A stretch of 55,370 nucleotides of DNA from an uncultured archaeon (GCA_964342815.1 CAYFHS010000026.1:1-55370), one strand, 5' to 3'. Positions 1,280 to 34,200 are shown, counted from the first letter of the stretch. The notes: a model not told the origin generated them from the letters alone. Translations and numbers: made by a program.

Positions 1280-4200
1280 TCACTCCGCCTCTGAAATATC
1301 CGCGGTAGGCAATGCTCTTATTTCATCACCGGATTCAAGCAGGGGAAATCTCTTTTGTTCCAATTCCTGCATCAATGTTTCATTTACTGCAATAAACTGT
1401 ATTTCCGCGTTTTCGAAATCATTGGTTTTATACAACGAAATACCCTTCTCGTATTCGGTACGGAACTGGCCGATATCCAATCCCAATAACATACCTTCTT
1501 TGAATCCTGTGTTAATTGCATCATACAATTCCCTTGCCCTTGTTTCCGATTCATCGATTTCAGGTACGTTTACAGGTGTTTCCGTTACAGGATCGGGCTC
1601 CGCCTCAGGTCCCCCTGACGGCGGTATCTCTTCAAGAGATTCTTCAATTATTTCGACCTTTTCTTCTTTTATCGGTATTTCGACTGTAGTTTCCTCTTTT
1701 TCCGTGGTCTTTCTTCCTCTTCTCATGAAAGCGATGAGGAGAATTATAATTATAACCAATAACAGGGCCATAACACCCATCATCGCGAAACCAGTGGGTG
1801 AAGATAATAGATCGCTCGCTCCCGTTCCACCAACTCCACTGTTTCCATCGGTGTCATCATCCCCTTCTGTATCATCATCCCCTGCAGTATCGTCATCACC
1901 CGTGGTATCGTCATCCCCTGTTGTATCATCATCCCCTGTTGTATCATCATCCCCGGCGGTGTCGTCATCACCAGTAGTATCATCATCCCCGGTAGTGTCG
2001 TCATCCCCTGTTGTGTCATCGTCTCCGGTTGTGTCGTCATCACCAGTAGTATCATCATCCCCGGTAGTGTCGTCATCACCACTAGTGTCATCATCCCCGG
2101 TAGTGTCGTCATCATCTTCGCTCGGCTTTTCGGTAACTGTAATATTAACTACGTCGTTTTCTTCATTTCCCGCATCATCCAAAACTTTAAGCGTCACCTC
2201 GTAGATACCCGGAATATCGAATAAAAATGAAGGTTCGTCATCGAATAATTTTAGGTTACTCTTGTTATATCTGAATGACCACGTATAGTTAACAATCCCA
2301 ATATTGTCATCAGAAGCGCTACCGTCAAAGTATACAATGTCACCCTCTTCAATACTATCATCCGAACCTGCATCGGCGTTAGGGATGTCATTATCCGAAA
2401 CAACAATTTCTATCAGATCACCGGATTGGAAATTCCCTGATGTGTCCTCAACGCTTATCGTAAAACTTAAATTGGACGTATCATGGCCGAGAGTTTCGGT
2501 TTCGACCCAGTAACCGTTGTCCGGGATCAAAGAAATGTTCCTACCAAGTGTCCCGTGCTCCCAATCAACATATACCGTTTCCACTTCGATATTGTCCGTG
2601 GCCTGTACCTTGAATTGGAATTCGTCGCCTGTGGTCCCGGTCATATCGCTTTTATCGTTCAGTGTGGGCAAATCATTGTCCGTTACTCCTACGGTATGCA
2701 ATATTCCAGTTGCAAAGTTATCGGAACTGTCCTTTACGGATATGGTGTAAGTGAGATCCACAAGATCGTCGTCCAGTGTAATGGTAGAAGTCCAATATTC
2801 TCCCGAAAGAACCAGCGAAACGTTATCACTCGAATCGCCATGGACCCAATTTGCAAATACCGATCCAACTTTGATATTATCGATTGCGGTCACGTTGAAA
2901 GTGAACTGGTCATTTGTACTTCCTGTTGCTGCCGACAGGTCGGTAAAGGATGGGCTATCATTGTCGATGACGTTTACAGTTTTCAAGTTACTTATTTTCA
3001 AATTATTTGAGGAATCCACTACTGTTATCAAATAACTGAGATCTCCAATACTGTGATCGAGAATAATTGTTTTAGACCAGGAATTTCCCGTTTTCGCAAG
3101 TGTGATATTATCACCCAGGGCCCCCTGGGACCAATTCAGATAAACATCTGTTACCTGAATGTTGTCCGAAGCCGCAACGTCGAAAATGTAATTGTCGCCT
3201 GTTGTTCCAACGCCCGGGCTGTTGTCAGAGATCGTGGGTAGATCGTTATCAATAACATTTATTTTTTTATTTATGCTAATGTTGAAATTAGCGGCCTTAT
3301 CCCGGACATAGAGCTCGTAGGAAAGGGGATCAATACTATCATCCAATGTGATGGTTCCAGTCCAGATATTCCTATTCTTAGTTAACGAGAGGTTCCCCTT
3401 CTGAATCCCGTGGAACCAATTCGCGTGGACGAAGTTTACCCCGATATTGTCCGTAGCGGTAACTCTGAAAGTGAACTGATCACCCGTTGATCCCTCATTG
3501 GGTGATTGATCATCGAACGTAGGAATATCGTTATCGGAAACGCTTACTATTTTTTTGGCACTGATATTGTAGTTATTAAACGTGTCATTAACATAGCTGA
3601 CATAGCTAAGATCATTTATATCATGGGCCATAGAAATATTTCCGATCCAGTATCCGCTGGCCTTGTTCAACGAAAGATTCTGATTCAGATTTCCGTGCAT
3701 CCAATTGACAAATACCTTCCCCATTTTTATATTGTCCGAAGCGGTGAAGTTAAAGGTGAATAATTCACCGGTTGTACCGCTATTAGGGGTGCTATCCTTG
3801 TAGGTCGGAGGATCGTTATCGGTAACGTTGACGATTATCAAATTACTGATGTTATAATTATCGGAAGTATCGTTTGTATATATTGTATACGAAAGCGGTG
3901 AGAGATTGTCTTCAAGAGTTATATTTCCTATCCAGTAGCCGCTGGCCTTATCGAGGGAAAGATTTCTGCCGGAATTCCCATGAGACCAATTAACGTATAT
4001 TTTGTCCACTTCTATGTCATCCGAAGCATTTATCCTGAATGTGAATTTATCAGCAGTGGTTCCGGTGTTATTACTCCTATCGAGATATCCAGGACATACT
4101 GTGTCAGGGATGTTTTCTATAGAACATACCCAGAAATCATCAAGATACATATCCGTTCCCGTAGCCCTGAATTTGAAATCCGCGGTACAATAATATTCCT

Positions 4201-5317
4201 CCAGGTAACTACCATATATGTTATAGCCAAGGGTGGCCCAATTGTTATACATATAAATATACCAGGCATCGTCGATCCCTTGATTACCATTCTTTTGTCC
4301 GTCCCAGCTGCCGGATGAACTGTTCCAGAAATCAAAGGACCAGGTAGATGGATTTGCAGAACCCGAAAAAGTCCAGCCAATGAATATACCCTTTGTACTT
4401 CCACCGTTCGGGGCGCCGTATAATGGAAGTTCATTATCTTTAGTATTAGAGAGATCAACGGCATATTCAATGTATTGAACGCCAGCACTCGCAGCTTCCC
4501 ATACGGTCGGCGCTGTATGGCCGGTTATATCGGGATCATTCTGTGCGGCTAACGAGGTTAAGGACCAACCATTTCCATGTGCCCACTGGTTCTGTTCGAC
4601 ACCAGACTCTACCGTATTGTATTCTCGCATCACATAGGGATAAAAATAGGCGTCATTATTGGTTTTATCCGGATCACCCACCGATTCTATCTTCAAACAT
4701 ACCTCGATTCTACCTGCATATCGGGGCCTCCATGATAGGGAAGTATTGAGTCCCTCGGTCGTGGTATTTTTCCCTGCCGGTAATGGGCCCACGTTCCTTG
4801 AGATATTTACGAATTCACGTCTTGTTTCCCAATTTCCTCCCTTGTTGATAATGTACTCGTGTATCACCAATCTCAAGGTGAATTGATTGATCTGTACCCC
4901 CCCGTCGTTCTTTACTATCGGTGTATAGGTTATGGTGGTATTTTTCACTCCCCACAAGTACTCTCGAAAGCCATTAATGTCATAATACAGTGTATTAAAA
5001 GGCGCATTAGATATATCATCGTACCAAAGCATTCCGTCCCAATCCATTAATAGATCACCATTTGCACCTCTTGTTCTATCAGGTTCTTGTGGACGGAAAA
5101 TATGACACTTTGATTTTGAATTGTATGTTGAAAATGAAGATTGTTCTTCCGCGATGAATCCATCAAGTGCTAAGTTGTCTTTTCCTTCGTTGCTTATTTC
5201 AACTTCTTCTCTATTGCCAAACTCAGCTTCTTTTTGATTTTCATAGATAATCGCATGAGGCAACAATAAACTCAAAATTGCTAATATTATGATTACAGAG
5301 CTTTTCAGATTAGTCAT
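1280..5317 (-). CDS. Giant single-pass surface glycoprotein: signal peptide, CARDB-like and jelly-roll-like domains, six ~95-aa Ig-like repeats, PKD, (GDDDT)14 stalk, TM, cytoplasmic tail with helical module
   Basis: GGAGGT 7 nt upstream of ATG at 5317 (ORF track start 5332). Hydrophobic N-terminus; repeats DNDxPT...GTTG.xFTF...W.HG; PKD ADAGSD..FDGSASDD; TM GFAMMGVMALLLVIIIILLIAF followed by MRRGRK; many N-x-S/T sequons. Confidence 0.9.
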   Translation of the reverse strand: MTNLKSSVIIILAILSLLLPHAIIYENQKEAEFGNREEVEISNEGKDNLALDGFIAEEQSSFSTYNSKSKCHIFRPQEPDRTRGANGDLLMDWDGMLWYDDISNAPFNTLYYDINGFREYLWGVKNTTITYTPIVKNDGGVQINQFTLRLVIHEYIINKGGNWETRREFVNISRNVGPLPAGKNTTTEGLNTSLSWRPRYAGRIEVCLKIESVGDPDKTNNDAYFYPYVMREYNTVESGVEQNQWAHGNGWSLTSLAAQNDPDITGHTAPTVWEAASAGVQYIEYAVDLSNTKDNELPLYGAPNGGSTKGIFIGWTFSGSANPSTWSFDFWNSSSGSWDGQKNGNQGIDDAWYIYMYNNWATLGYNIYGSYLEEYYCTADFKFRATGTDMYLDDFWVCSIENIPDTVCPGYLDRSNNTGTTADKFTFRINASDDIEVDKIYVNWSHGNSGRNLSLDKASGYWIGNITLEDNLSPLSYTIYTNDTSDNYNISNLIIVNVTDNDPPTYKDSTPNSGTTGELFTFNFTASDNIKMGKVFVNWMHGNLNQNLSLNKASGYWIGNISMAHDINDLSYVSYVNDTFNNYNISAKKIVSVSDNDIPTFDDQSPNEGSTGDQFTFRVTATDNIGVNFVHANWFHGIQKGNLSLTKNRNIWTGTITLDDSIDPLSYELYVRDKAANFNISINKKINVIDNDLPTISDNSPGVGTTGDNYIFDVAASDNIQVTDVYLNWSQGALGDNITLAKTGNSWSKTIILDHSIGDLSYLITVVDSSNNLKISNLKTVNVIDNDSPSFTDLSAATGSTNDQFTFNVTAIDNIKVGSVFANWVHGDSSDNVSLVLSGEYWTSTITLDDDLVDLTYTISVKDSSDNFATGILHTVGVTDNDLPTLNDKSDMTGTTGDEFQFKVQATDNIEVETVYVDWEHGTLGRNISLIPDNGYWVETETLGHDTSNLSFTISVEDTSGNFQSGDLIEIVVSDNDIPNADAGSDDSIEEGDIVYFDGSASDDNIGIVNYTWSFRYNKSNLKLFDDEPSFLFDIPGIYEVTLKVLDDAGNEENDVVNITVTEKPSEDDDDTTGDDDTSGDDDTTGDDDTTGDDDTTGDDDTTGDDDTTGDDDTTGDDDTAGDDDTTGDDDTTGDDDTTGDDDTAGDDDTEGDDDTDGNSGVGGTGASDLLSSPTGFAMMGVMALLLVIIIILLIAFMRRGRKTTEKEETTVEIPIKEEKVEIIEESLEEIPPSGGPEAEPDPVTETPVNVPEIDESETRARELYDAINTGFKEGMLLGLDIGQFRTEYEKGISLYKTNDFENAEIQFIAVNETLMQELEQKRFPLLESGDEIRALPTADISEAE
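1847..2116 (-). repeat. 18-nt coding tandem repeat, 15 units (14x GDDDT[T/A/S/E/D] + DDDDTT)
   Basis: Units read directly, e.g. tgttgtatcatcatcccc and agtagtatcatcatcccc; synonymous variation between units. Confidence 0.95.
2396..4109 (-). repeat. Six tandem ~95-aa beta-rich (Ig-like) coding repeats
   Basis: Six aligned units with consensus DNDxPTxxDxSxxxGTTGDxFTFxVxAxDNIxVxxVxxNWxHG...NxSL...W...ITL...LSY..V.D...N. Confidence 0.85.
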
Positions 5318-5614
5318 TTTCATAACCTCCAACTTGGGTTATTCATGTGAAATTTATTCCTTGTCGTTTTACTGGAATAACCCGACTAATAATAAGATTA
5401 TGAAAATGTTGAATAGTTATATATGTTTTATGAGTCTTTGTTATTTGACATCATGGAAAAACCATACCGATCAAATCATTTTTCGTTCTTCCCCGATCTC
5501 CAAGTTATAAGCGAATTTCAACTACACGTATGGGGAAATGCCATTGGAAGGAAAGGAAAAACATTAATAAGTCAATATCGATAATACATCATCGAGAGGT
5601 TTGGTGATACTTAC

Positions 5615-10487: not shown

Positions 10488-13400
10488 ATGATGAACAATG
10501 ACGATCAATGGTTAAGATTGGCAGCTCTGTCCCTGGTTTTATGTATCATTGGCGGCAGCTGCGCGGTACTTATTGATGAATTTATTCCCAACACAGACAT
10601 CAACACAAGCTCTGAGGTAGAGAAAACTCCAGAAGTCCAGGGAAAATACGATTCAGATAAACGAGGTCAGCTGCATCCATTCAATCCAAGCCGGTGGTCC
10701 CCCGATTGGGTTCTTGTGACTTCAGGCGGTGTAGGGCGGTACTATGATAAACAACCCCGCCGCGATACCCAAAAAACACCTTTGTGGTATTATAATGATG
10801 CCATAAGCAAAGGAGGACGGATCCCGAAAGAACAGGAGCTGGTTGATTGGGGAAGCCAGTGGGGACGAAACAATATCGGCAGCAGTGCTGACGTCATGTA
10901 TGTCAAAACCGAGAACCCCTTGGACCTAAGATGGACCGATAGGCCCGGATGTAGGTGCGATCAAGATGTACAATTAAATGGCCGAATACCCACAGGAGGC
11001 GGGGGTGGGGTTATCTATCTTTGGGATACTCTGTACGCAAGTGTGGTCATGACGAAAGATACGGCTCTTACGGATCCCGGAAACCAGGAATATATTTGCT
11101 ACTCGGAGTACAGACCCTATAATATTAGCGTCAAGGTGGGTACGACAGATTTTTTAACCGACGCAAAGGAAATGAATCTTTACCTGGACTACAATCATAC
11201 AAATGCAACCCTGAATTACAACTGGATGAACCAGACCTTCTATAAAACCCAAGACCCCAACGGACACGTGGAAGTTCTTCTTGACAAATGCACTGTAGCT
11301 AATGATGGTGTGGAATTCTGGTGGTTAAATTTCACTGTCATCTTCAATTTCACTTTTCCACACGAACGCCTTGTAGATTGTTACGTCGAGACCCTTGCTA
11401 CTAATGGCGATAATTCACGGGATTTTTTCCCATGGCTTTTCCGGGTTGAGAACGATTTTGAAATGGAAGGTACCCCTGAGCTGGTTGGAGAGTATCAGGG
11501 AAAACTCGAAGAAGGAGATTGGATACAAGGTAACGAGACCATCACTCTTTCGAATCTCACTGTGAAGTACGCGGACACATTCAATATTTATCCCGATGAC
11601 CGTTATTTCGACGTCACCCTTACGGACACGGAAGGGAATATCTACTGGGACAACGAATCAAGCGGTGAAGAGGTGCAAATAGAGTTTCCGTCGAGAAATT
11701 TAACCGACCTAAGGGAAAAATATTACATAACCATCGAAAACCTTCCAGGGCGGGCCATTTGCATGAGCAATTTCACTTTTCCGGTAACTATCGATAACGA
11801 GGCACCTGCGGCACCCTTCAATGTGATTTGCCATGCCGACAGTTTCAGGGACAAAGAAACGGAAAATACAGACCAGACCGAAACCTTCGTAACCTGGGAA
11901 CCGGTGGAGGATTTTGAATCTCAATTATTGGGTTATTATTATTCTCTAACCGATAATTCTGGAACGGATAACGGGACGTTTCTAAATTTAACGGAAGTGC
12001 ATATTGAAAATCTTGACGAGGGAGATATCTCGATTTACGTCTGGAGTGTTGACAATGTCGGTAACATAGGTACTGCGTCTAGTTCGGGAATAAGAGTGGA
12101 TCTAACCCCACCTGTATTCAGTGATCTCATTCCCATGGATGGTTCCTGGTTCAATCATAGCGATATCGAATGTTCGGTGATAATTCAAGATCTCAACGGA
12201 TCCGGTGTTGACGCAAGTACCATCGAATACTCAATTTCTTCTCGCGGTTCCGGCGCTTTCGTCCAATGGATACCTGCTTGGCTGCCCTATGATCAGATTA
12301 CAGTGAATCCCACTGTGATATACAACTTCCCGGAGGGGGATACAAACTACATCAAGTGGAGGGCTAAGGACGTGTCGGAGAACGGATTTGTGGAATCGAA
12401 TCCCGTAAATGTTAAAGTTGACATTACCCCGGTTGAATTTGCCCCCGAGATCAGCCCACAGATCGAATGGTATAGCAAACACGAGATTACTTCGACGATA
12501 TTTATCAGTGACATTGGTTGTGGTGTTGATACTGATCGGATCGAGGTGCGGATTTCTACTACAGGTTCCAGTGATTTTGATCCGTGGTTACCTGTCGATC
12601 CGGAAAATATCACCTTAGCCCAGGATGGTTATGAGATTTCGGTCACCTTTCGTTATGCCGAAGGGAAAGATAACTATCTCATGTTCCGGGGAACGGATCT
12701 TGTAGGTAATCCTTATACCCAGTCTAAGAAATTTAACCTGAAGATCGACACAACTCCGGTTTATTTCAGTGATTTCAATATTGACGAAGACGATCCTCTC
12801 GAAGTTTGTGAAGTGGATTGTTTGATCATTATAAGGGATAACGGTTCCGGAGTGGAATCATCCTCAGTTGAATATTCCATTTCCACCGAAGGGGGCGATG
12901 AAAAATTTTTCTCACCCTGGAAAAAGGTTGCTAACGTGGTATCGGGAAATCCTACTCAGGCAACCTTACAGATCGAGTTCGAATGGGGGAGGGAGAATTA
13001 TATTAGATGGAGGGCTAACGACGTGCTGGACTCCGGTTACGGCTATTCCAAAACATACCAAATTTGGATCAATTCAGAACCGCAGGTGACAATCTCATCA
13101 CCCGAATCAAGAATCCTGGTTGACTCGAATGAGTTTGTTCTATTCGATGCAACACTCTGCGAAGATTATGACGGCGACAATCTGACTTTCTTCTGGTCCT
13201 CGAACATTGATCTGAACCGTTCGCTGGGAAATAGTTCACTGTTCAAGGCGAAACTTGCGGTGGGAAACCACAGCATCACTCTGTACGTGTCAGATGGTAA
13301 TGGCAACAATATCAGTAAAAAGTTCAAGGTAAATGTACGAGAAAAGGTTAATACACCGGTGAAACAAGGGCAGGACGAGGAAGGTATTTTTTCTGTCAGC

Positions 13401-14306
13401 AGTAGTGATGATTCTTTATTCTGGTTGATCATAGGGGGTGCTGGAGTATTATTATTGTTGATATTATTGATAATTTTCATTTTGATCGGAAAGAAAAAGA
13501 AGAAGAAAAAGTTAGCTGATGAGACCCTTTTACAGTCACAAATATCTCCAAGTTCATATTACGGACCACCTTCCTCCCCCTATCCCTATGGATATTATCA
13601 ACCTGGAGCTACTCAACAAGGGTATCAGCCGCAAGCTACAAATAATAACTTCGCGCCAGCTTTAGGATATGGTCAGGCCCAACCCAGGCCTATGCTACCT
13701 CCTGCATCAAGCACACAATACCCCCCTGCTCAACCATCTCAAATACCGTATTCCCCGAACGATCAAACGGTGGCTCAAATCCCGCAAAATTCGTCCTCCT
13801 CTACATTCGGACACACCGGTGATTTGTCCTATTCGCTTCCCATGTTCACAACCGAACAGGGAAACCAGAATCTGACCCGAATGGCCCTTCCGCCTGGCCC
13901 GGATGCCGTTGAACCAACCGATTTGTCCCAGGGAACGTATCCGCCACCTTCAGATGTTTCGTTACCCGGGATAGAAAACATTCAGTTCCAGGGAACCCAT
14001 CCACCTTCGCCCAATGTTCCGGATATTAATGCGATCCCGCCAATTCCACTGCAAGATACTTCCGCACCACCGGTGCCCACAGGATCTGAGCCTGACATTT
14101 CAGGAACCTTGGATGATATATTCAACGGAGCGCTTCTCGAAGGACTTCCGCCCCTCCCCGAAGCACCAACCCCCGAACCTAATGTTCAGGAAATAATGAT
14201 GCAGTGCCATTCTTGTGGAAACAGTTATCAGGCGAATATTTCTCAACTTCCCGCAGTAGTTACCTGCACACATTGCCAGACACAGGGCATGGTAGAGTCC
14301 TTGTAA
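10488..14306 (+). CDS. Giant single-pass surface protein, triplet paralog 1 (head, beta-sandwich body, FN3-like, Ig-like x3, PKD-like, TM, poly-K, Pro/Gln-rich tail, C-terminal zinc ribbon)
   Basis: Signal peptide; FN3-like APAAPFNV...TWE..GYYYSL; TM LFWLIIGGAGVLLLLILLIIFILIG followed by K7; terminal CHSC...CTHC. Start may be ATG 10491. Confidence 0.92.
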   Translation: MMNNDDQWLRLAALSLVLCIIGGSCAVLIDEFIPNTDINTSSEVEKTPEVQGKYDSDKRGQLHPFNPSRWSPDWVLVTSGGVGRYYDKQPRRDTQKTPLWYYNDAISKGGRIPKEQELVDWGSQWGRNNIGSSADVMYVKTENPLDLRWTDRPGCRCDQDVQLNGRIPTGGGGGVIYLWDTLYASVVMTKDTALTDPGNQEYICYSEYRPYNISVKVGTTDFLTDAKEMNLYLDYNHTNATLNYNWMNQTFYKTQDPNGHVEVLLDKCTVANDGVEFWWLNFTVIFNFTFPHERLVDCYVETLATNGDNSRDFFPWLFRVENDFEMEGTPELVGEYQGKLEEGDWIQGNETITLSNLTVKYADTFNIYPDDRYFDVTLTDTEGNIYWDNESSGEEVQIEFPSRNLTDLREKYYITIENLPGRAICMSNFTFPVTIDNEAPAAPFNVICHADSFRDKETENTDQTETFVTWEPVEDFESQLLGYYYSLTDNSGTDNGTFLNLTEVHIENLDEGDISIYVWSVDNVGNIGTASSSGIRVDLTPPVFSDLIPMDGSWFNHSDIECSVIIQDLNGSGVDASTIEYSISSRGSGAFVQWIPAWLPYDQITVNPTVIYNFPEGDTNYIKWRAKDVSENGFVESNPVNVKVDITPVEFAPEISPQIEWYSKHEITSTIFISDIGCGVDTDRIEVRISTTGSSDFDPWLPVDPENITLAQDGYEISVTFRYAEGKDNYLMFRGTDLVGNPYTQSKKFNLKIDTTPVYFSDFNIDEDDPLEVCEVDCLIIIRDNGSGVESSSVEYSISTEGGDEKFFSPWKKVANVVSGNPTQATLQIEFEWGRENYIRWRANDVLDSGYGYSKTYQIWINSEPQVTISSPESRILVDSNEFVLFDATLCEDYDGDNLTFFWSSNIDLNRSLGNSSLFKAKLAVGNHSITLYVSDGNGNNISKKFKVNVREKVNTPVKQGQDEEGIFSVSSSDDSLFWLIIGGAGVLLLLILLIIFILIGKKKKKKKLADETLLQSQISPSSYYGPPSSPYPYGYYQPGATQQGYQPQATNNNFAPALGYGQAQPRPMLPPASSTQYPPAQPSQIPYSPNDQTVAQIPQNSSSSTFGHTGDLSYSLPMFTTEQGNQNLTRMALPPGPDAVEPTDLSQGTYPPPSDVSLPGIENIQFQGTHPPSPNVPDINAIPPIPLQDTSAPPVPTGSEPDISGTLDDIFNGALLEGLPPLPEAPTPEPNVQEIMMQCHSCGNSYQANISQLPAVVTCTHCQTQGMVESL

Positions 14307-14437: not shown

Positions 14438-17400
14438 ATGAATCTGAAAGCACGATGTATAATATTGGCGTCGATTTCAATTGTTTTATGTATGATCGGA
14501 GCGGGATATTCTACAATAATCGATGAATTGATATTAAGTTCTGATATGGATTCTATTGTAAAGGTTGAAAAAATTCAAGATAACAGTGGAGAATACGAGG
14601 AAAGTAACCGGGGCCAGTTACATCCATTCAATCCAAGCCGATGGTCCCCTGATTGGGTTCTGGTCACCTCGGGAGGTGTGGGGAGATATTATGACAAGGA
14701 ACCGCGTCGGGACCGAGGAAAATCACCAAGATGGTATTATAATGACGCAATAAGCAAAGGAGGGCGAATACCTAATTACCAGGAGCTTTGGGATTGGGCT
14801 AACCAATGGGGACGCAATAACGTGGGAAGTAGTGCGGATGTAATGTACGTGGCTCGTGATAATCCCTTGGACCTGAGGTGGACGGATAAACCTGGTTGCA
14901 ACTGCGATGGGGATCTGAATGAAGATGGCTCCATAACCACCGGAAATAATGGAGGCGTCATCTACCTATGGGAAACACTCTACGCCAGCGTGATCATGAC
15001 TAAGGATACCGCCCTGACAGATCCCGGAAACCAGGAATATATTTGCTACCCGAGGTACAAGCCCTATAACATAAGCGTAAAGGTTGGCATGACCGATGCT
15101 CTTACCGATGCAAAAGAGCTGAATCTCTTTCTGGATTACAACAATACTAACGCAACGTTGAATTACAACTGGATGAATCAGACATTTTACAAGACACAAG
15201 ACCCCGACGGCCATGTAGAGGTTCTTCTTGACGAATGTACTGTGGCAAACGATGGCGTAGAATTCTGGTGGGTGAATTTTACGGTAATATTCAATTTTAC
15301 GTTTCCTCACGAAAGGCTCGTGGATTGTTACGTGGACACCCTTGCAACAAACGGGGACAATTCAAGGGATTTCTTTCCATGGCTGTTTCGCGTGGAAAAT
15401 GATTTTGAGATGGATGGAACCCCCGAGATCACAGGAGAGTATCAAGGTAAACTTAAAGAGGGAGATTGGATACGTGGCAATGAAACCCTCATACTGTCGA
15501 ACCTTACTGTTATGTATGCGAATACGTTCAATGTACATCCCGATGATCAATATTTCGACGTCACACTAACTGACTCCCTGGGAAATATATACTGGGACAA
15601 CGAATCAAGCGGCGAGCAAGTTATTATTGAATTCCCATCGAGAAATCTCACCGACCTTAGAGAGAAATATTATATCACAATAACGAACCTTCCTGGTAGT
15701 ACAATCTGTATGAGCAATTTCACCTTTCCAGTAAAAATCGATGCCGAAGCTCCTGCTGCGCCCTTCAATGTTGTATGCCATGCAGACAGTTTCAGGGATA
15801 AGGAAACTGAAAATACAGACGAGACCGAAACCTTCGTAACATGGGAAGAAGTAGAAGATTACGAATCCATGCTCTTGGGTTATTATTACTCATTGGTAGA
15901 TAATTCCGGGACGGATAATGGGACATTTATAAATAAAACCGAGGTCCATATTGAAAAACTCCTCGAGGGTGATATCCTGGTGTATGTCTGGTGTGTCGAT
16001 AATGTCGGAAACATCGGCTCGGCATCAAGCTCGGGAATCAGGGTCGATCTGACACCGCCGGTATTCAGTGATCTAATTCCAGCTGACGGTTCATGGTTCA
16101 ACCACAGTGACGTAGAATGTTCGGTCATAATAACGGATAACGGATCTGGTGTCGATGCAAGCACAATTGAGTACTCTATTTCTTCACGTGGCGCTGGTGG
16201 TTTCGTCCAATGGATACCTGCTTGGCTTCCCTATGATCAGGAAACCGTGAATCCAATTATAACTTACAATTTCCCCGAAGGGGATACCAACTACATCAAG
16301 TGGAGGGCCAAGGACGTATCGACGAATGGATTCGTGGAATCAGATCCCGTAAATGTAAAAATTGATATAACACCCGTTGAATTTGGGGTCGAGATCAGCC
16401 CCCAGATCGATTGGTACAGTACCCATGAGATAAGTTCGACGATATTTATCAGTGACATTGGTTGTGGTGTTGATACTGATCGGATAGAGGTCAGGATATC
16501 GACATCGGGATCAAGTGATTTTGGTAAATGGCTTCCCGTCGACCCAACCAATATAACCGACGCACAGGAAGGATATGAGATATCTGTTACCTTCAAGTAT
16601 GCTGAAGGGAGCGATAATTATCTCATGTTCCAGGGAACTGACCTTGTAGGCAATCCATTTACACAATCAAAAAAATTCAATCTGAAGATGGATACGATTC
16701 CCGTATATTTCACTGATTTCAATCTTGAAGGGGAAAACCCACTGGATGTGTGTGAAGTCGATTGTTTGATCATCATTAGAGATAACGGTTCGGGAGTAGA
16801 AACATCATCTGTTGAATATTCAATTTCCACAGAGGGAAAAGATGAGAAATTTTTCTCACCCTGGAAAAAGGTTGCCAACGTTGTATCGGGAAATCCTACT
16901 CAGGCAACCTTGCAGATCGAATTCGAATGGGGTAGAGAGAATTATATTAGATGGAGGGCAAACGACGTGCTGGACTCAGGATTCGGTTATTCAAAGACAT
17001 ATCAAATATGGATCAATTCAGAGCCGCAGGTGACCATCTCATCTCCCGAATCCAGAATCGAGGTTGACTCGGATGAGTTTGTTCTGTTCGATGCAACACT
17101 CTGCGAAGATTATGATGGTGACAATCTGACTTTCTTCTGGTCCTCGAACATTGATCTGAACCGTTCGCTGGGAAATAGTTCACTGTTCAAGACGAAACTT
17201 GCGGTGGGAAACCACAGCATCACTCTGTACGTGTCAGATGGTAACGGCAACAATATCAGCAAGAAGTTCAAGATCAACGTACGTGAAAAAATTGATCCCC
17301 CGGTTGATAACACCCCGAAAGATAATGGAATTTTTTCTGCCGGTAGTGCTGATGATTCACTTTTCTGGTTAATAATCGGTGGGGCCGGTGTTTTATTTCT

Positions 17401-18402: not shown

Positions 18403-21400
18403 ATGAGTATAAGGGTGTGGATGAGTGAGATCATGAAAGGTAAAAAATCCTGGACTGTGCCGGTAACAGTTGTAATTTTATTCTCGATGTTTTTTACAGG
18501 TTTATTAATTAACATAACTTATTCTGAACAAAATGAAAATCAATCAATAGAAACCGGCTCTCAGAAAACTATTCAAAATATTCCGCTTGTAGAGGAAAAT
18601 CAATCACGCGGCGGCCTGCATCCGTTCCATGGGGGCTATATTGAGATAAATGGGCTGTATTACGACAATAATGTACGCAGGGATCGGGGATATACCCATC
18701 GCTGGTATTATCTCGACGCTATTAGCAAGGGGGGCCGGATCCCCAATAAAGCAGAGATAACGGCATGGAACGACCGGCGAGGAAGACAAATCGACGGGAG
18801 CATAGACATGCTTTATTGTAAAGATCCAGGGTCTGGTCATCAATTTGCATATACTGACAACCCAATGTGCGGCTGCGATTACAACGTAGCTGAGAACGAG
18901 AATCTTCGAAATCCCAATAACGGCGGCTGTGTATATGTTTGGGACACTCTCTATGCCAGCGTGATAATGACGAAAGATACTGCCTTATCTGATCCCGGAA
19001 ACCAGGATTACATATGCTACTCAAGATACAGACCCTATAATATCAGTGTCCAGGTCGGAACAACCGATGATTTAATGGACGCAGAGGAAGTAAGTCTTTA
19101 TCTGGATTATAATCATACAAATGCAACATTGAAGTATAATTGGATGAACCAGACCTTTTTCAAGCTGCAGGACCCCAACGGACATGTGGAACTTCTTTTG
19201 GATAATTGCAGCGTAACCAACGATGCTGTAGAATTCTGGTGGGTTAACTTCACGGTAATGTTCAATTTTACCTTTCCTCATGAGAGTCTGGTTGATTGTT
19301 TCGTCGAGACCCTGGCCACGAATGGTGACGATTCAAGGGATTTCTTCCCATGGCTGTTTCGCGTGGAGAACGATCTCGAGATGGATGGCACCCCCGAATT
19401 GGAAGGTGAGTACCAGGGTAAGCTCAATGAGGGGGATTGGATACAAGGTAACGAGAGCATTACGCTTTCGAATCTTACTGTAATGTATGCAGACACGTTC
19501 AACGTCTATCCCGATGACCGGTATTTCGATGTCACACTTTCTGACTCCGAGGGAAATGTCTACTGGGATAATGAGAGCAGCGGTGAGGAGGTCCGCATCG
19601 AATTCCCATCGAGAAACAAGACCGATCTCAGAGAAAAATATTACATAACCATAACGAATCTTCTCGGCAAGGCCGTTTGTATGAGCAACTTCACTTTTCC
19701 TGTAAACATTGATGCCGAAGCCCCTGCAGCTCCCTTCAACGTGATATGCCATGCAGACAGTTTCAGGGACAAAGAGACAGAGAATACCGACCAGACGGAA
19801 ACCTTTGTCACCTGGGAAGAGGTAGAGGACTTTGAATCCGGGCTCAAAGGATATTATTACTCCCTTACAGATAATTCCGGAACGGAAAATGGGACCTTTC
19901 TAAATTTAACAGAAGTGCATATTGAAAATCTCATGGAGGGTGAAATCTCAGCATATGTCTGGTGTGTGGATATGGTGGGTAATATAGGACCGGCGTCCTC
20001 CTCCGGAATACTCGTTGATCTTACCCCTCCAGTATTCAGTGATATCATTCCTCTGGATGGTTCCTGGCACAATCACAGCGACGTAGAATGTTCGGTGATA
20101 ATTCAGGATATAAATGGCTCGGGTGTTGATGCAAGCACCATAGAATACTCCGTTTCCTCTTTGGGAACCGGTGCTTTCCTTCAATGGATACCGGCATGGC
20201 TTCCCGATGACCAGGAGACCGCGAATCCGATCATTACATACAATTTCCCCGAGGGAGATACCAACTACATCAAATGGAGGGCAAAGGACGTATCGGAGAA
20301 CGGATTCGTCGAATCCGATCCAGTGAATGTTAAAATTGACATTACCCCTGTTGAATTTGCTTCCGAGATATCTCCACAGATCGATTGGTATGGTAAAAAC
20401 GAGATAAGTTCGACTATATTTATTAGTGACATAGGCTCCGGTGTTGATATTGATCGTATCGAGGCAAGGATTTCCACATCGGGCTCAAGTGATTTTGATA
20501 AATGGCAAAGCGTTGACCCTGCCAACATCACTGAGGTTCAGGACGGTTATGAAATAACTGTGGGCTACAGCTATAAGGAGGGAAGCGATAACTATTTAAT
20601 GTTTCGTGGTACCGATCTGGTAGGCAACCCCTATGCACAATCGAAGAAATTCAATCTAAAGATCGATACCACCCCTGTTTATTTCTCTGATTTTAATCTG
20701 GAAGATGAAAATCCACTGGACGTCTGCGAAGTCGATTGTTTGATCATCATAAGGGACAACGGCTCCGGTGTGGAAACTTCATCCGTGGAGTATTCAATAT
20801 CAACAGAAGGTGGCGATGAGGAATTTTTTTCTCCATGGAAAAAGGTTTCAAACGTAGTATCTGGGAATCCCACCCAGGCAAGTATTCATATCGAATTTGA
20901 ATGGGGAAAGGAGAATTACATCAGGTGGAGGGCCGACGACTTACTAGCCACAGGATATGGTTATTCGAAAATATATCAAGTTTGGATAAATTCAAAACCA
21001 GAGATTACGATCTCATCACCCGAATCCAGGATAGAGGTAAGCTCAGATGAATTTGTTTTATTCGATGCGACACTAAGCGAAGATTTCGATGGTGACGAAC
21101 TGACGTTCTTCTGGTCTTCGAACATTGAGCTGAACCGTTCGCTGGGAAATAGTTCGTTGTTCAAGGCCAGATTGGCAGTTGGAAACCATAGCATCACCTT
21201 ATTTGTCTCGGATGGCAACGGTAACAATATCAGTAAGAAGTTCAAGGTCAACGTAAGGGAAAAGGTCTATGCACCGGATGATGTCGAACAGGACGATGAG
21301 GGCATTTTTTCCGTGGGGAGTGGAGACGATTATTTATTCTGGTTTATAATCGGTGGGGCCGTTGTTTTACTTCTCCTGATCCTCCTGATTTTTTTTATCG

Positions 21401-22209
21401 TTCTGAGAAAGAAAAAGAAGAAAAAAGAAGCCGAAAAAGCATCTTATAGTTCACAAACTTCCACTTCTCCACCATATGGGGCATCTTTATCACCCTATCC
21501 ACAGGGCTATTACCACCCTTCCAATATTCAGCAAGAATACCATGCAGTGCCATCAGGAACCAGTATGCAGTCCATGGGGTATGGTCAGATGCAGTCTCAA
21601 CCTCAGCAGTCGCAAGCGGCTCCCCCGCAATATTCATCTTATCAGCCTGTTCAACAACAGTTACCTCAGTACCAACAGCTACCCGGAGGTACTCCGACAA
21701 ATACTTCGATGAACGCTGCGGGACTAGGTCAAGATATATCGTATTCTCTTCCGGCCTTCACCACAGATCAGGGTCCCCAGGATTTAAACAGAATGGCCCT
21801 TCCACCGGGACCTCCTCCTGACGAGCTTGCAGTATCAGTACAGACCGCTGTATCTTATCCTGAAGTTCCAATTTCTGGACCGACGGAATTACAATATCAG
21901 GGTTCACCCCCTTCACCGGCAGCCTCCCTGGAGAATAATGTATTTTCCCCGGTGACGGTCGCAAGTTCTCCACCATTACCGTCAGAACCCGGAACGAACA
22001 CAGCAAGAACACTTGAGGAAATATTCAGCGGCCCCTCCCTGGGAGCACCACCGATCCTCTCCGATGTACCGAATCCGGGAATAGGTATAAAAGAAATAAT
22101 GATGCAATGTCATTCCTGTGGGAATAGTTATCTCGCCAGTGTCGCCCAGCTACCCGCTACAGTGACATGTACGCATTGTCAGACTCAGGGTATGGTGGAA
22201 TCGTTGTGA
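18403..22209 (+). CDS. Giant single-pass surface protein, triplet paralog 3 (most divergent head)
   Basis: Colinear body; head 9 codons shorter with two extra Cys; TM followed by RK6; terminal CHSC...CTHC. True start may be ATG 18421 or 18433. Confidence 0.92.
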   Translation: MSIRVWMSEIMKGKKSWTVPVTVVILFSMFFTGLLINITYSEQNENQSIETGSQKTIQNIPLVEENQSRGGLHPFHGGYIEINGLYYDNNVRRDRGYTHRWYYLDAISKGGRIPNKAEITAWNDRRGRQIDGSIDMLYCKDPGSGHQFAYTDNPMCGCDYNVAENENLRNPNNGGCVYVWDTLYASVIMTKDTALSDPGNQDYICYSRYRPYNISVQVGTTDDLMDAEEVSLYLDYNHTNATLKYNWMNQTFFKLQDPNGHVELLLDNCSVTNDAVEFWWVNFTVMFNFTFPHESLVDCFVETLATNGDDSRDFFPWLFRVENDLEMDGTPELEGEYQGKLNEGDWIQGNESITLSNLTVMYADTFNVYPDDRYFDVTLSDSEGNVYWDNESSGEEVRIEFPSRNKTDLREKYYITITNLLGKAVCMSNFTFPVNIDAEAPAAPFNVICHADSFRDKETENTDQTETFVTWEEVEDFESGLKGYYYSLTDNSGTENGTFLNLTEVHIENLMEGEISAYVWCVDMVGNIGPASSSGILVDLTPPVFSDIIPLDGSWHNHSDVECSVIIQDINGSGVDASTIEYSVSSLGTGAFLQWIPAWLPDDQETANPIITYNFPEGDTNYIKWRAKDVSENGFVESDPVNVKIDITPVEFASEISPQIDWYGKNEISSTIFISDIGSGVDIDRIEARISTSGSSDFDKWQSVDPANITEVQDGYEITVGYSYKEGSDNYLMFRGTDLVGNPYAQSKKFNLKIDTTPVYFSDFNLEDENPLDVCEVDCLIIIRDNGSGVETSSVEYSISTEGGDEEFFSPWKKVSNVVSGNPTQASIHIEFEWGKENYIRWRADDLLATGYGYSKIYQVWINSKPEITISSPESRIEVSSDEFVLFDATLSEDFDGDELTFFWSSNIELNRSLGNSSLFKARLAVGNHSITLFVSDGNGNNISKKFKVNVREKVYAPDDVEQDDEGIFSVGSGDDYLFWFIIGGAVVLLLLILLIFFIVLRKKKKKKEAEKASYSSQTSTSPPYGASLSPYPQGYYHPSNIQQEYHAVPSGTSMQSMGYGQMQSQPQQSQAAPPQYSSYQPVQQQLPQYQQLPGGTPTNTSMNAAGLGQDISYSLPAFTTDQGPQDLNRMALPPGPPPDELAVSVQTAVSYPEVPISGPTELQYQGSPPSPAASLENNVFSPVTVASSPPLPSEPGTNTARTLEEIFSGPSLGAPPILSDVPNPGIGIKEIMMQCHSCGNSYLASVAQLPATVTCTHCQTQGMVESL

Positions 22210-26760: not shown

Positions 26761-26793
26761 TTAATTTTAATTGTGTTATTTTGAAATTCGAAA

Positions 26794-26825: not shown

Positions 26826-26988
26826 AATATTTTATTACGATAAGTCATCGAATCGAGTAAAGAATCAACTACAAGAGCATAAGATTTATTTATGACCACA
26901 ACTATTAGATACCGCTCACTCCATTTGATATTCGTCAATTCATACTGACGAATTATATTATTTATGAAATCTATCGGAGGCAGGCGGA

Positions 26989-29900
26989 ATGTTGATTCAA
27001 AACTGCAGGATAATGCCAGGATTTATTAAAACTTTGATAGCTATTGTAGTAATCATTTCATTACTCAACGGAATAATACCGATATCGGGAATCGGTCAAA
27101 ATGATTCGAGGATTGCATGTATAGACCCTGAATTGGAGATTCAACCAGTAAAGGAAGAGTTTACAACGGAGATAGATTCCTCCCATGAGAGGTCCGGGAG
27201 AAACTTGCTTTCCTTCAATACGGGAAAAGATACTTTCGTGTGCAATGATTTCGACATGAATGGATACAAGGAAATGAATTTCGGCGCCGAGGATACAATT
27301 TACGTGGCTTATGAGGACACTGCATACAATTATTTCCCTCCATTACGGGGTTTGATAAAATTCGATTTTTCTGGAATTCCTACAAATACAGAGATAATTT
27401 CCGCCAATATGAAATTATATTACGGGGAATCCATAGAAGGTGAGTCCGTACCCCTTGCCATAACCGCTTATCCTTTGACTTGTGATTGGGTCGAGGGTAC
27501 CGGCACATGGGAACAGTACGATGACAACGCTGTTAATTGGAAAACATACGACGGAAAAAATGCGTGGAATACACCAGGTGGAGATTATGATGATCAAATG
27601 GGAGTTGCGGCCACAACTCCTGGAAATTTCGGATGGGTCACATGGGATATAAAGAATATTTTCCAGGAATGGTCGGATGGGACCATTGAGAATCACGGAG
27701 TGATACTCATTTCCAAAACCGAGCCGACCCAACCAACTGTAAAATTGTTAAATTCATTCAACGGGGCCAATAATAAACCGGTTCTCGAGATCCGTTACAA
27801 CAAACCTCCCACAGCCATTATCGATTCAGTGGAACCTAATCCTGTAAAGGAGTTTCGAAACGTCACGTTTACCGGTCATGGGGATGATCCAGATGACGGG
27901 ACTACCAATTCTGGATTTATTTGGATGCTCAAGAATGATTACATCCCCACCATAGTGGTGGGCAATGAAGCCATAAGCACCGTGGACAATTTAACCCATG
28001 GTAGTTACGAGGTCTCCTTCCGTGTGAAAGACAATTTTGGTGTCTGGTCTCCTGACGTTACGTTGAATGAACCGTTGGTCGTCAGTGCTGATGAAGCTCC
28101 TGCTAAGATCGATGATCTTATAGCAGAGGCGCACGGGGGTCTTAGCGGCGCCATAAATCTCACTTGGAAGGCAGTGGCAGAGGATGGGCTTCGCGATGAT
28201 GGGAAGGCAAGCAGGTATATTATAAAATACTCCGATACTTATATGGATAGTCTAGCTTCCTTCAACAATGCCGAGGATCTCGACAGCATAATTGAAATCC
28301 CTGAGCCGAAGAAACCCGGGGGAAGAGAGGAAATTACCATTACCGGTTATAACAAGGGCAGTGAACATTTCTTTGCGGTGATTGCTGAGGATGAGAGAGG
28401 TCAGAGGAGCCCGATCTCGAACGTAGTAAGGGCAATTGCACCGGATCATAATCCGCCGGATGGTATCCTCGATCTAAATGCAGAATCGGGTAAGAGTGAT
28501 GGCGAGATAGACCTTATGTGGACTGCTCCGGGTGATGACGGTATCGATGGACAGGCACACAAATATCAGATCAAATGCTCGAAAGACCGGATACGCACGA
28601 TTTGGGATTTTTACTCGGCCGACGATGTTCCCAATAGTGACGAGGTCCCGTCTCCAAACCCTGCCGGCAGTCGCGAATCTTTTACAGTTACAGGATTAGA
28701 ACGCAGAGAAACATATTACTTTGCCATCAAGACCATGGACAAATGGGATAATATAGGCCCATTATCCAAAGTAGCTGAAGCCATGGCAACCGACAAGATG
28801 GCTCCTTCCATGGTCACTGGTGTCGTTGGCTTCGATACCCCTGATGATCTCGGACAGAGCATCACCATTAACTGGAATATTTCACCTGAAGAAGACCTTC
28901 ATCATTATTCAATCTACGTTGCCATGACACCCATCACAGATGTCAGCCTTATTACTCCGGTCAAAACCATTGATAAGAACCAAGGTACAAAGGCGATTAT
29001 CAGATCTCAGGATATGTCGCTGGTAGATCGGAGGGAATATTATGTAGCAGTCACTGCCGCGGACGACTACAATAACATGAAGACCGAAGTTATCTCTTAC
29101 GGGCCGATCATGTCCCTAAATAATCTGAAGAAAGCCCAACCACTCTTAGATCCTGAAAGAGGTACCACTTACGAAAATAAAGCTATAAGTGAAAATCCTG
29201 CAGTGGATATTGAGATCACTAAACTGGATGTTACAATCAACACAGAAGAGATCGACGACAAGTTCGTTAGTATCACTACATCGTACGAGATCGAGGGGAT
29301 TTCAACGGTCCCAGGGGATCAGATCGATCATATCGATGTCTACGATCACATGAGGGACGGTGAGGACGATTGGGATTGGTCGCCGCTCATGGATCAAGTC
29401 GCTGTCGAGGACCTGGATGATACGGAAACGGATTACGTTGATAAATTATATGAACTGTTCTTTCATCCCGATATTAGCCAAGATATCTGGTCACTGTCCT
29501 ACCAGTACTCTCGTATCGTCGAAAAAGAAGAACTGGCACTTCTGGGTATAGGCGAGAATCCTGAAAATTACGGTGTGAACCAGATATGCATAGTTACATG
29601 GACCGTAACAGCAGAATGGAATTATCTAGTGCAGGAATACGAACAAAAGGTAATCAGTACATGGGTGGATTCGGACAGGGACGGTCTGGCTGACAAATGG
29701 GAAGAAAAATATTTTGAAAGCATTACGAAATATTTTGCTCTCGATGATGCCGATGGGGACGGTTTTTCCAATTTATTGGAATTCCAAGAGAACTCAATAC
29801 CAACTGATGCGAATTCCTATCCTCAGGGTACGCCCGATAAGACAATAGTAGATCCGGTGAATAAAAAAAGTTCGGGACTGGAAGATAAAGGTTGGTTATT

Positions 29901-31204: not shown

Positions 31205-34200
31205 TTATTTGACTGGTTTCCTGACAACCTTTCTTCGAACTACTTTACGCGGTTTATGGGCAGCAACCTTCACAGCATCTGTGGGAACTTCTTCTATCTT
31301 GGTTTCTGATTTAACGGGGGGAAGTTCCTCCTTTGGCTGTGTTTCTTCGCTGGATATGTCAGTTTCCTCGGTCTTTTCTTCGGATAGATCTTCCTGTGCG
31401 GTATCCGGGGTCACTTCTTCAACAGGAGGCAGGGCTAACAGCTCCTTCGTCCCGGTTTCTAAGGCAGTATTATCTTTCCCTCCTTCTGACAGATGGGTCG
31501 GTTGGGGCTCCTGAGACCCTGTTGATGGAGGTGGTCCGGGGGGTCCGCGATGAGCCGAAGTAGGTGGTCCGGGGGGTCCGCGATGAGTCGATGAAGGTGG
31601 TCCGGGAGGTCCTCGTTCGGTGCCGATTCCCATTTCTAGAGGAGGCAGATCCATCGATATGGTCTTTATCCCATCCATCCCATCATCATCCTTCCTGACC
31701 TCATGACTCTCCACTTTCACCGTGGGGTCGTACTCGATTTCCGAATATTCAGTCTGTTCGTGCGGTTCATAAGGATCTTTCACGGGTCGGCGTATCACAA
31801 AAATTATCAAAGTAAGTATGATTAACGAAACTCCGATCAATATTAGCCACGAGGTGTATATTCCTGACTTTGATTCTTCCGGAAGAGTTTCCACATTTTC
31901 CATATATTTGTTGATATATTCCTCATCACCGATCTTGAGTATCAAAGTCTTGTGAGACGCATCCAGGTAACCTACCTTAGTGAACTGTACCGCGTAGTTT
32001 CCTTCAACCAATTCGATGTAGAAGCTTCCATTCGTATCGGTCATTGTGTATTCGGCATTTGTTCCGCTCTTTTTAAAATCAACTTTCACTCCCTCGATCC
32101 CTTTCCCGTTCTGATCCATAATCCTACCGGCAACTATTGCAAAAGTTAATCTCCTCAAAATAATCGTTCCCAGATCGATGGGTTCATTGGTGAATCTTAT
32201 TGTGGTCTCGTACGACAGGAAATCTTCTTTCGTAATGGCCAAATCGAAGGTACCGTTTCCCAGTATGAAAGTGAAAAAACCGTTCATGTCCGTTCGTGTT
32301 TTCACCTTACCGTTGCATTTTATTAGAGCATCCATCATATTATTACTAGCGTCGTCCTTCACGTATCCCATTACAACGGTAGTCTCGAGAAACACCCAGG
32401 GTTTCATTGTGAAGCTCTTGCTGACGGGTTGGTTCACCTTGACAATGATACCTTCCAATATAATGTCTGCATATCCGGTTTTGTTGACAAAGATAGTGTA
32501 AATCCCTTTCTCTATGAAAAACGAATAGAAACCGTTTTCGTCACTGGTAGCCAAGGTCGCCCCTCCCACAGATACGTTTGCCCCGGGAATCGGGGATGAG
32601 TCAATTTTTCTTATAAAACCCGAAATCCGCTCTTTTGTTTGTATCCATTCCTCAGTTCTGAATGTGATTTTAAAGGCGTCCAATCGATTGTAAACAAGAT
32701 CATAAACAATTGGAATCGAGATGACATATTCCGTATTCGAAGCTAGTCTGTCAGAAACCGGAACTATCTGAAGTGAATAGGTGCTCCTGTTGTAGATTAA
32801 TTCGATCTCCACAAGCTCTTTGTCACCTTCCAAGGTAAGTTCTTCCTTATCCAGTTGTGAGAAGATGATGTTTTCAGAAAAATTTATAAAAATATCAGTG
32901 TAAACGCTGATACCCCATTTCCCATCACGGGGTACGGTTTTCACCACATATGGAGCTGTCTCGTCCTTAACAGCCAATGGGATCAGGTCGATATCCAAAG
33001 TCCGGTTCTTGCCAGTAAGGGTCACGGAAACCGTATTGTTTACCTCGTCCACCTCATATGGTATTACCAATTCCCATGCGGCTTTCGGAAACTCGTGGTC
33101 GTACTTGTAGATCCGCAGGTTTTCTTCGCGTATATTGTTTATGAGGTCCGCTTCATCATATTGGAAGGTTACTACAGCAGATAGAACGAATATTATACCC
33201 TCGGTCTGCATGTTGAAACTATATCCGATATCCAGAAGGTCTTCTGGTATGTCCACAGTTCTAGCCGAACTGATTATGACGGTCCCCGGCCCGGCAGAAT
33301 ATAGGTCCAGTTTCAATAGACCACCCTGGAATTCTATGGATTTCCATGAAGCATTGAAGGATTCTACCCGGATGCTACTGGAATCCGTTCCACCCATCTC
33401 ATCTGTTACTGTTAGGTTTATTATGTGAATTCCCGGCTCCAATACACAGTTGGCACTGGAATTAGCCCCTTGGTAGAGTACTCCACTTATACTGGATTCC
33501 AACAGATATGTTAATTTTTGGTCAGGATCGTCCGCATCCATGCTGTCTGAAAAACTAAAGATATGTTCGTCGTCGGCGAGTATGTAGTAGGGTTCAATCA
33601 TGGGAAGGCTCAGAACTGCTCGTGGATTCAAGTTGTTCACAGTCATTCCGATGTTCTTCTTGTATACCTTTTCCAACTGCAGCGAAATATCATAAGTACT
33701 TAGATAATACCAGTCCTTGGTAAAATGAATGGTATAACCAAGACCAGGTAAAAATACCTGAATGTCGGACAGGTCGAATTTATAAAATCCGGTATCGTTG
33801 GTTGTTGTTGTTGCCAATGCATTATATGATCCCAATACCTTGATTTGGACAGTTACGTTAGCAAGATTCTGTCCGAAATAGGGAGAATCTAAGCTGTCGT
33901 CCTTTACGAAACCAAAGGCCCCCGTCTGCATATCATCCGGAAGAGAATAAAAGGTGATGTTGAAACTGTTATCCCATGCGATCTCGTCATAGGGATGGGA
34001 CGTTGTGAAGGTAACTCTGTACTCCGCTCCGAGTTTACTCGGTACGGTCCATAGGAATTCAACTATGGAAGTTATCTTCAATTTCAGATCGATAATAGTT
34101 GTAAATTCCACCGGCACCCAATCGTCATTCCCGACCTCAGTAATAACTACGTTAACGGTAATACCGGTCTCATCGTGCGTACCATTGTTGCGAATGTATC

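Follow-up and report, generated by a model that had tools for sequence, protein, structure and literature searches.

Surface proteins encoded by an uncultured archaeon carry in their tails a short peptide, Ala-Leu-Pro, at which a second proline is the favoured next residue, written here as ALP(P). The peptide was noticed in a stretch of 55,370 nucleotides (GCA_964342815.1, CAYFHS010000026.1:1-55370), hereafter the window, which is contig C26 of a 4.35-Mb Thermoplasmatota genome (G000; 116 contigs, 89% complete); the NCBI label of one homologue reads "Candidatus Thermoplasmatota archaeon". ALP(P) is enriched over chance, is restricted to the tails of type-I-like membrane proteins, recurs independently in unrelated sequence, is selected at the level of the protein, is retained in orthologues with some turnover, and lies in disordered or weakly structured regions. 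On balance we lean towards the view that it is a lineage-specific short linear motif, held by purifying selection in the type-I tails of one marine Thermoplasmatota family, that provides a docking site for a common cytoplasmic factor. We infer that a single reader binds it in trans.

Enrichment of ALPP in type-I tails

Counts were made on the non-overlapping longest open reading frames (ORFs) of the whole genome (n = 3252). Applying a Kyte-Doolittle window rule for a signal peptide, a single anchor and a tail of at least 40 residues yielded 290 type-I-like proteins with 60,066 tail residues, so that surface proteins with long tails make up about 9% of this crude ORF set. Clustering by ectodomain similarity sorted the 290 proteins into 157 families, including the 22-member paralog family (family 1) that holds a triplet of genes in the window and forms further arrays on contigs C1 and C10. 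The tails are probably cytoplasmic, because a basic patch follows the anchor, as the positive-inside rule would have it, and because CxxC zinc ribbons are present, as are Ser/Thr kinase-like and winged-helix-like sequences, which were recognised by eye in related tails.

The whole ORF set contains 58 copies of ALPP, and 43 of these are in type-I tails, a raw count that is inflated by paralogs. Shuffling whole tails gives an expectation of 2.47 copies (maximum 10 in 1000 shuffles), and shuffling within 20-residue blocks, so that local proline richness is preserved, raises it to 3.8 (maximum 12 in 500). For the longer form [LMF]ALPP the tails hold 30 copies where 0.23 would be expected. By contrast, ALPP occurs once in the ectodomains of these 290 proteins (1.9 expected) and 14 times in all other proteins (9.4 expected). 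The initial annotation had cautioned that proline-rich tails would raise the chance rate, and had proposed shuffled and proline-rich controls. The excess persists under both, since within proline-rich segments alone the enrichment of ALPP is 15-fold for tails, compared with 0.6-fold for ectodomains and 1.7-fold for the other proteins.

A three-residue core in unrelated contexts

The core of the motif is shorter than first described. The tripeptide ALP occurs 96 times in the tails against 19.1 expected, is present in 68 of the 290 tails and 27 of the 157 ectodomain families, and ranks third among enriched tail tripeptides, behind the zinc-ribbon words SCG and CGA. Elsewhere it stays at expectation (40 observed against 41 in ectodomains; 182 against 203 in other proteins), and the ends of membrane proteins outside the type-I set are likewise not enriched (16 against 13.9). 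Proline is favoured as the following residue (43 of 96 sites), with Gln, Glu and Met next, and the preceding residue is preferentially Pro, Leu or Lys, which gives the consensus [P/L/K]-A-L-P-[P/Q/M]-[A/G/S]-P. The recurrence reported in the initial annotation thus holds, while its definition of the motif as [LM]ALPP proves too narrow, as the core is ALP(P) and the preceding residue is not confined to Leu or Met. Sites lie at a median of 112 residues past the anchor (interquartile range 83-133), and some tails hold two or three copies.

Independent recurrence is apparent at several levels. The 43 ALPP copies belong to 11 ectodomain families and, judged by the alignability of 30 flanking residues, to 20 unalignable contexts, compared with fewer than four copies expected altogether. 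In family 1, ALPP is present in 21 of the 22 members and the remaining one has LALPE; outside this family there are 19 copies in 16 tails from 10 families. When 12 orderings of A, L, P and P were compared outside family 1, ALPP was the most frequent with 19 occurrences, followed by the overlapping words PALP (13) and LPPA (12), against 1 for PPLA and none for LAPP or PPAL. All four Ala, all six Leu and all four Pro codons are used at ALPP sites. Such free synonymous variation points to selection on the peptide instead of a DNA element, and it rules out a DNA-level element or gene conversion as the source of the recurrence.

Retention of the motif in related genomes

Another check proposed at the outset was whether the motif is kept in orthologous tails, and it is: comparisons of G000 with three sister genomes sampled by targeted searches (G001, of the same genus, G002 and G003) span three genera, across which the motif persists while its flanks diverge. 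An alignment of 30 family-1 tails, comprising the G000 paralogs, sequences from the three sister genomes and eight metagenomic homologues, has a mean column identity of 24%. The Cys/His ligands of the C-terminal zinc ribbon are invariant in this alignment, and the only other invariant columns are the L-P of YSLP, one Gly, and A-L-P-P. These residues belong to a short conserved island of the tail that is kept in all 22 G000 paralogs and in every metagenomic homologue examined. Two family-1 homologues have an additional free-standing [RM]LALPPGPQP copy, indicating that the motif unit is modular.

Orthologues of the other motif-bearing proteins of the window, which are described below, behave similarly. 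The FLALPPHL of the DNRLRE-type protein corresponds to LPALPPYM in G001, LPALPPHL in G003 and KALPPAR in G002, so that ALPP is kept in all three related genomes searched even though the flanks are divergent. For the 2387-residue protein the equivalents are ELLALPPA (G001), RLALPPGP (G003) and LPALPSAP (G002), with ALPP in two of three and ALPS in the third. The 1350-residue protein has one usable orthologue, in G003, with KALPTGD at the same place, giving the pattern [RK]ALPT[AG]D. Among further families, LALPPAR is kept in four proteins of fam2, and two of three ALP sites are kept in fam10.

Among the genomes searched, an excess of the motif was found only in the taxonomic family of the window. 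Matches to a degenerate nucleotide pattern that encodes ALPP[GA]P outnumber those of the reversed control in G000 (27 against 4), G001 (18 against 4) and G002 (21 against 0); G003, with 29 matches to each, is uninformative. In 57 other relatives at the class or phylum level, this pattern stays at the control level with no excess, and the family-1 stalk has class-level homologues whose tails differ and lack ALPP.

Sites in the window

In the window, eight large ORFs combine an N-terminal hydrophobic stretch with one C-terminal hydrophobic stretch, after which come a basic patch and a long tail. Their ectodomains have PKD, FG-GAP or fn3/disaggregatase-repeat domains, or are without a Pfam domain. 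ALP[PT] is present in six of the eight tails. Translation reproduces all six motif stretches listed in the initial annotation, with their coordinates and strands, and each is located beyond the single C-terminal anchor, itself followed by a basic patch, of a protein that starts with a signal-like segment.

Three sites belong to the family-1 triplet, whose genes are on the plus strand at 10488-14306, 14438-18301 and 18403-22209. The tail island of paralog 1 (YSLPMFTTEQGNQNLTRMALPPGP) is at 13830-13901, with MALPP at 13881-13895; that of paralog 2 (YSLPAFTTDQGPQNLNRMALPPGP) is at 17762-17833, with MALPP at 17813-17827; and the same island occurs in paralog 3 at 21742-21813, with MALPP at 21793-21807. 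A CHxC...CxxC zinc ribbon closes the tail of paralog 2 (18179-18292, plus strand), and the same module closes paralogs 1 and 3. An eight-gene family-1 array elsewhere in the genome is interrupted by a two-gene insert on the opposite strand (G000:C1:157308-158089; 105 and 155 residues) that resembles a toxin-antitoxin pair of the ribbon-helix-helix and PIN kind.

The remaining three sites are in unrelated proteins. A 1387-residue fn3/disaggregatase-repeat protein of the DNRLRE type (gene 26989-31152, plus strand; tail 29962-31149) has LALPP at 30277-30291, just upstream of a predicted helical bundle at 30319-30747. On the minus strand, the 2387-residue protein (gene 31205-38368; tail 31208-31792) has LALPP at 31424-31438, and the 1350-residue PKD protein (gene 1280-5332; tail 1283-1732) has RALPT at 1304-1318, ten residues before its C-terminus. 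The last of these had been regarded as a near-match, and because the core is ALP it counts as a full member of the set.

Structural setting and tail modules

AlphaFold2 (AF2) models place the motif in disordered or weakly structured sequence. The tail of triplet paralog 2 is predicted to be disordered except for the zinc ribbon (predicted local distance difference test score, pLDDT, 93-96) and the island (pLDDT 67-71), which is modelled as a small hairpin at tail residues 116-123 just ahead of ALPP, leaving the motif at the island's edge. In the DNRLRE-type tail, ALPP is in a linker with pLDDT below 50, with a zinc ribbon on one side and on the other a helical bundle (pLDDT about 95; helices at tail residues 125-259). 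A search of the Protein Data Bank with the model of this tail returned generic helical bundles only, with no match at an E value of 0.001 or better, and a Pfam scan of eight tails gave only sub-threshold hints of zinc ribbon, TPR and RING domains.

The bundle is akin to the 66-residue repeats of a 2448-residue cytoplasmic rod protein (G000:C12:43851-51197; BLASTP E = 3e-6, with several in-register matches). One weaker copy of the rod repeat is present in the tail of the 1350-residue protein (window 1283-1600, minus strand; E = 0.025). Other giant proteins rich in Glu, Leu, Lys and Ala are encoded as well, among them ORFs of 7277 and 3835 residues.

The initial annotation described the tails as unalignable. 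This is correct for the 20 flank contexts of ALPP, but not for the DNRLRE-type tail, which shares a module of about 230 residues, zinc ribbon plus helices, with about 13 other ectodomain families; the tails are thus modular and partly alignable. ALPP is absent from the equivalent linker in these other families. The zinc ribbon of the family-1 type likewise occurs in 14 ectodomain families. More broadly, the tails of G000 reuse a common set of modules behind unrelated ectodomains: zinc ribbons of several types, a RING-like finger, Ser/Thr kinase domains, bundles of rod repeats, and one or two winged-helix modules for DNA binding.

Other short peptides recur in the tails. An acidic peptide, [LMI][DEN][DN][IL]F, is found in 14 copies in the tails of eight ectodomain families against 0.5 expected; it appears as LDDIF, LNDIF and LEEIF in the triplet and, once family 1 is set aside, shows no association with ALP. 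A related acidic C-terminal peptide, LDDMLDGLLEDL, ends the DNRLRE-type tail (31114-31149, plus strand); it departs from the strict pattern and is modelled by AF2 as a short helix. The polybasic sequence RKVVRR[KR]VV is common to two unrelated tails, at the C-terminus of the 2387-residue protein (31208-31264, minus strand) and in G000:C2:14731-18819, and it is kept in all three orthologues of the former. Similar basic ends are found at C34:6926-11497 and C52:3572-7351, both of which also have ALPP. In two further proteins (L053, G000:C29:7174-13353; L058, G000:C28:42597-47003) a conserved domain of about 140 residues directly follows LALPPAR, at tail residues of about 125-270. This domain, with the pattern …PIDEVFLLTPSGLLVQHYS…LAxMLSAVxSFIxDSL…, has no Pfam match and, judged by eye, may resemble a Roadblock/LC7-type fold.

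Candidate readers

The initial annotation suggested that the motif is read by a common cytoplasmic adaptor, analogous to SH3, EVH1 or WW domains. This suggestion is supported in part: the enrichment, the conservation and the disordered or weakly structured context fit a docking motif, but among the profiles searched no SH3, WW, GYF or MIT match rises above its cut-off. The best SH3_1 (PF00018) match reaches 17.7 bits against a cut-off of 22.9, in a 364-residue membrane protein, and at 89% completeness such an absence is unproven. The other SH3 profiles (PF07653 and PF14604) have no match in the genome, and WW (PF00397) and GYF (PF02213) have none at an E value of 0.1 or better. The best MIT (PF04212) match, in a tandem pair of CBS+TPR proteins, scores 16.9 bits against a cut-off of 30, and Vps4 was not found in the genome. 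A full-text literature search returned no description of the motif, nor of proline-motif readers for archaeal surface-protein tails.

No support emerged for the zinc ribbon as a reader: outside family 1, ALP accompanies the family-1-type ribbon in 4 of 14 tails and is found in 42 of 254 tails without it (p = 0.27). Rods with the 66-residue repeat are found throughout the class, a wider distribution than that of the motif excess, and phyletic matching therefore lends no support to the rods as reader. Two tandem paralogs of 370 residues (L080, G000:C42:34096-36341), each with an N-terminal CBS-like domain and five or six TPR repeats as read from the sequence, are candidate cytoplasmic peptide-binding proteins. 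A single cytoplasmic FKBP, a long FKBP of the SlyD kind that bears a His-rich tail, is encoded in the genome (C7:20908-21720; PF00254, score 22.9 bits, cut-off 21.1). Two other FKBP-type isomerase domains are apparently extracellular. One forms the N-terminus of a 908-residue type-I protein that otherwise consists of about 20 acidic D-x-D-G-D-G-Y-P-D repeats, and the other is in a membrane-anchored protein of 286 residues (G000:C18:33137-35863 and G000:C18:1884-2744).

Relation to described motif systems

Proline motifs in the tails of eukaryotic receptors include class I (RxxPxxP) and class II (PxxPxR) SH3 ligands, the EVH1 ligand [FWYL]PPPP and the group II WW ligand PPLP. ALP(P) is like these ligands in being a hydrophobic-plus-polyproline peptide in the disordered cytoplasmic tail of single-pass proteins, with unrelated carriers and drifting flanks. 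In family 1 it reads R-[ML]-A-L-P-P-[GA]-P, which is reminiscent of RALPPLP, the class I peptide of the Src SH3 domain. However, family 1 reads R-x-x-x-P-x-x-P, which puts the Arg one residue out of register, and most copies outside this family (ALPPHL, ALPPVE, ALPPAR, ALPQ, ALPE) lack PxxP or an in-register basic residue. The motif contains neither PPxY nor PPLP, and LPP[GA]P has two consecutive prolines where the EVH1 ligand has four. Moreover, the invariant part is Ala-Leu-Pro instead of prolines alone, and many copies have no fourth proline.

C-terminal sorting signals are a poor match as well. The PGF-CTERM signal of archaeosortase and the LPXTG signal of sortase directly precede a C-terminal hydrophobic helix and basic end, whereas ALP is a median of 112 residues past the anchor, on the side with the zinc ribbons and kinase domains. 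A further likeness is to suc-Ala-Leu-Pro-Phe-pNA, the standard FKBP substrate, which binds E. coli SlyD with a KD of ~44 µM and has been crystallised in that protein (PMC5034536). A-L-P is identical to the P2-P1-Pro part of this compound, and the genome has a cytoplasmic FKBP; the match speaks for compatibility only, as it reflects the generic, weak-affinity substrate preference of an enzyme and not a docking system.

That no archaeal equivalent has been described, as the initial annotation had it, is too strong a statement. In Sulfolobus, the proline-rich MIM2 peptide of CdvB, RELLPELPHPP, is bound by the MIT domain of CdvC (PMC5840170), so that MIM2-MIT (ESCRT-III/Vps4, CdvB/CdvC) represents one described archaeal proline-rich linear motif with a cytoplasmic reader domain. 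The layout of the CdvB peptide, a charged residue and two leucines followed by prolines, recalls the copies KELLALPP, RELLALPP and GELLALPP. Yet the carriers in the Sulfolobus system are ESCRT-III subunits and those found here are surface-protein tails, and the MIM2 consensus, phi-P-x-phi-P-x-x-P-phi-P (PMC5840170), does not fit ALPP because Ala replaces the first Pro.

ALP(P) has the general features of a short linear motif, being short, set in disordered sequence, recurrent in non-homologous contexts and conserved relative to its flanks. It is a short linear motif of receptor tails but a member of no named system, since membership in the SH3, WW, GYF and MIM2-MIT systems fails either on the register of the motif or on the absence of the reader domain.

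Alternative explanations

Several observations weigh against a docking motif with a single reader. The gene calls and topologies rest on crude, heuristic ORF and hydropathy rules. The 22 paralogs of family 1 contribute 24 of the 43 ALPP copies, and single-linkage by any shared ectodomain or tail module leaves 5 copies in 4 clusters outside one giant cluster, against 0.8 expected; this grouping places 164 of the 290 proteins in the giant cluster and was judged too coarse for assessing independence, for which flank alignability was used instead. Sites turn over in fam137, with one lost within the genus and others in G002 and G003, and the invariant LALPPAR of fam2 abuts a conserved folded domain and may belong to that fold. 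Searches with the SH3_1, SH3_2, SH3_9, WW, GYF and MIT profiles brought up nothing that reaches its cut-off in the 89%-complete genome, and no conserved small cytoplasmic gene accompanies the three family-1 arrays.

The weight of one paralog family, which supplies over half of the ALPP copies, together with the swapping of tail modules between ectodomain families, could be taken to mean that the motif has no function and reflects paralogy, module shuffling and biased composition. This explanation is largely refuted and seems improbable, because the 20 unalignable contexts far exceed the number of copies expected in total, the near absence of LAPP, PPAL and PPLA outside family 1 and the lack of excess in other proline-rich sequence do not suit a compositional origin, and the motif is kept in orthologues whose ectodomains are only about 40% identical, with codons varying freely. 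A structural role that needs no reader, with A-L-P-P acting as a helix stop or a rigid polyproline kink at module boundaries, would account for the position of the fam2 LALPPAR immediately ahead of a conserved folded domain, for ALPP about 15 residues ahead of the DNRLRE-type bundle, and for its place after a short predicted hairpin and helical turn in family 1. We nevertheless think it unlikely: a hinge does not need an invariant Ala and Leu, homologous modules elsewhere have Pro-rich linkers with no ALPP at the same place, and many copies are far from any folded module.

Other possibilities would have the peptide act on the tail or on its synthesis. A cytoplasmic SlyD-like FKBP might dock on the Leu-Pro bond or isomerise it, gating the conformation of the tail as a prolyl switch or chaperone site. 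FKBP12 acts on Leu-Pro sites of eukaryotic receptors, and both the identity of Ala-Leu-Pro with the model substrate and the FKBP gene on contig C7 suit this idea; but long FKBPs are near-universal in archaea while a single taxonomic family shows the motif excess, FKBPs bind short Leu-Pro peptides weakly, and it would go unexplained why a second Pro, and then [AG]P, is preferred, which leaves the idea quite unlikely. Cleavage of ALP-P by a cytoplasmic protease, which would free the distal zinc ribbon, helical domain or kinase, agrees with the location of most sites between a membrane-proximal spacer and the distal modules. We give this little credence, as the winged-helix tails that would profit most from release have no ALP in any of 11 cases, some tails have two or three copies, and no protease candidate was found. 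Least probable of all is a translational pause that times folding or membrane insertion. Pro-Pro-Gly and Pro-Pro-Ala are known ribosome-stalling contexts, and the length of the family-1 island approximates that of the ribosomal exit tunnel, yet a second proline is missing from over half of the conserved ALP sites (which read ALPQ, ALPE, ALPM or ALPT), the invariant Ala and Leu are upstream of the prolines, and a site 80-150 residues past the anchor is too distant for membrane-insertion pulling.

A proposed docking peptide for diverse surface proteins

If ALP(P) is a docking motif, the tail would leave the membrane as a flexible chain rich in Pro, Gln and Gly and, some 80-130 residues in, would display a short hydrophobic-then-polyproline peptide. 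One common soluble or cortical cytoplasmic factor would bind this peptide, and a wide variety of ectodomains could thereby be linked to a single intracellular machinery, whether it serves anchoring, clustering, sorting or signalling. A more elaborate picture, which we put forward tentatively and regard as possible but doubtful, is that this lineage has built for itself a eukaryote-style network of motifs and adaptors. Its roughly 290 receptor-like proteins would combine modular tails (zinc ribbons, kinases, winged helices, rod repeats, LDDIF), among whose docking peptides ALP(P) would be the most frequent, and its reader would be a new domain, as yet unannotated, that possibly belongs to giant helical-repeat cortical proteins.

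Networks of linear motifs and adaptor domains are counted among the hallmarks of signalling in eukaryotic cells, and hardly any have been documented from archaea. In the present genome a single peptide recurs in the intracellular tails of surface proteins that number in the dozens and are unrelated to one another. It offers a concrete 10-residue bait for an intracellular partner, and its excess in tails is a countable marker for phylogenetic profiling of candidate reader genes. With such a partner in hand, insight could be gained into how the surface of a wall-less or S-layer archaeon is coupled to its interior. If the picture of a motif-and-adaptor network is true, many different surface receptors would be tied to one submembrane scaffold.

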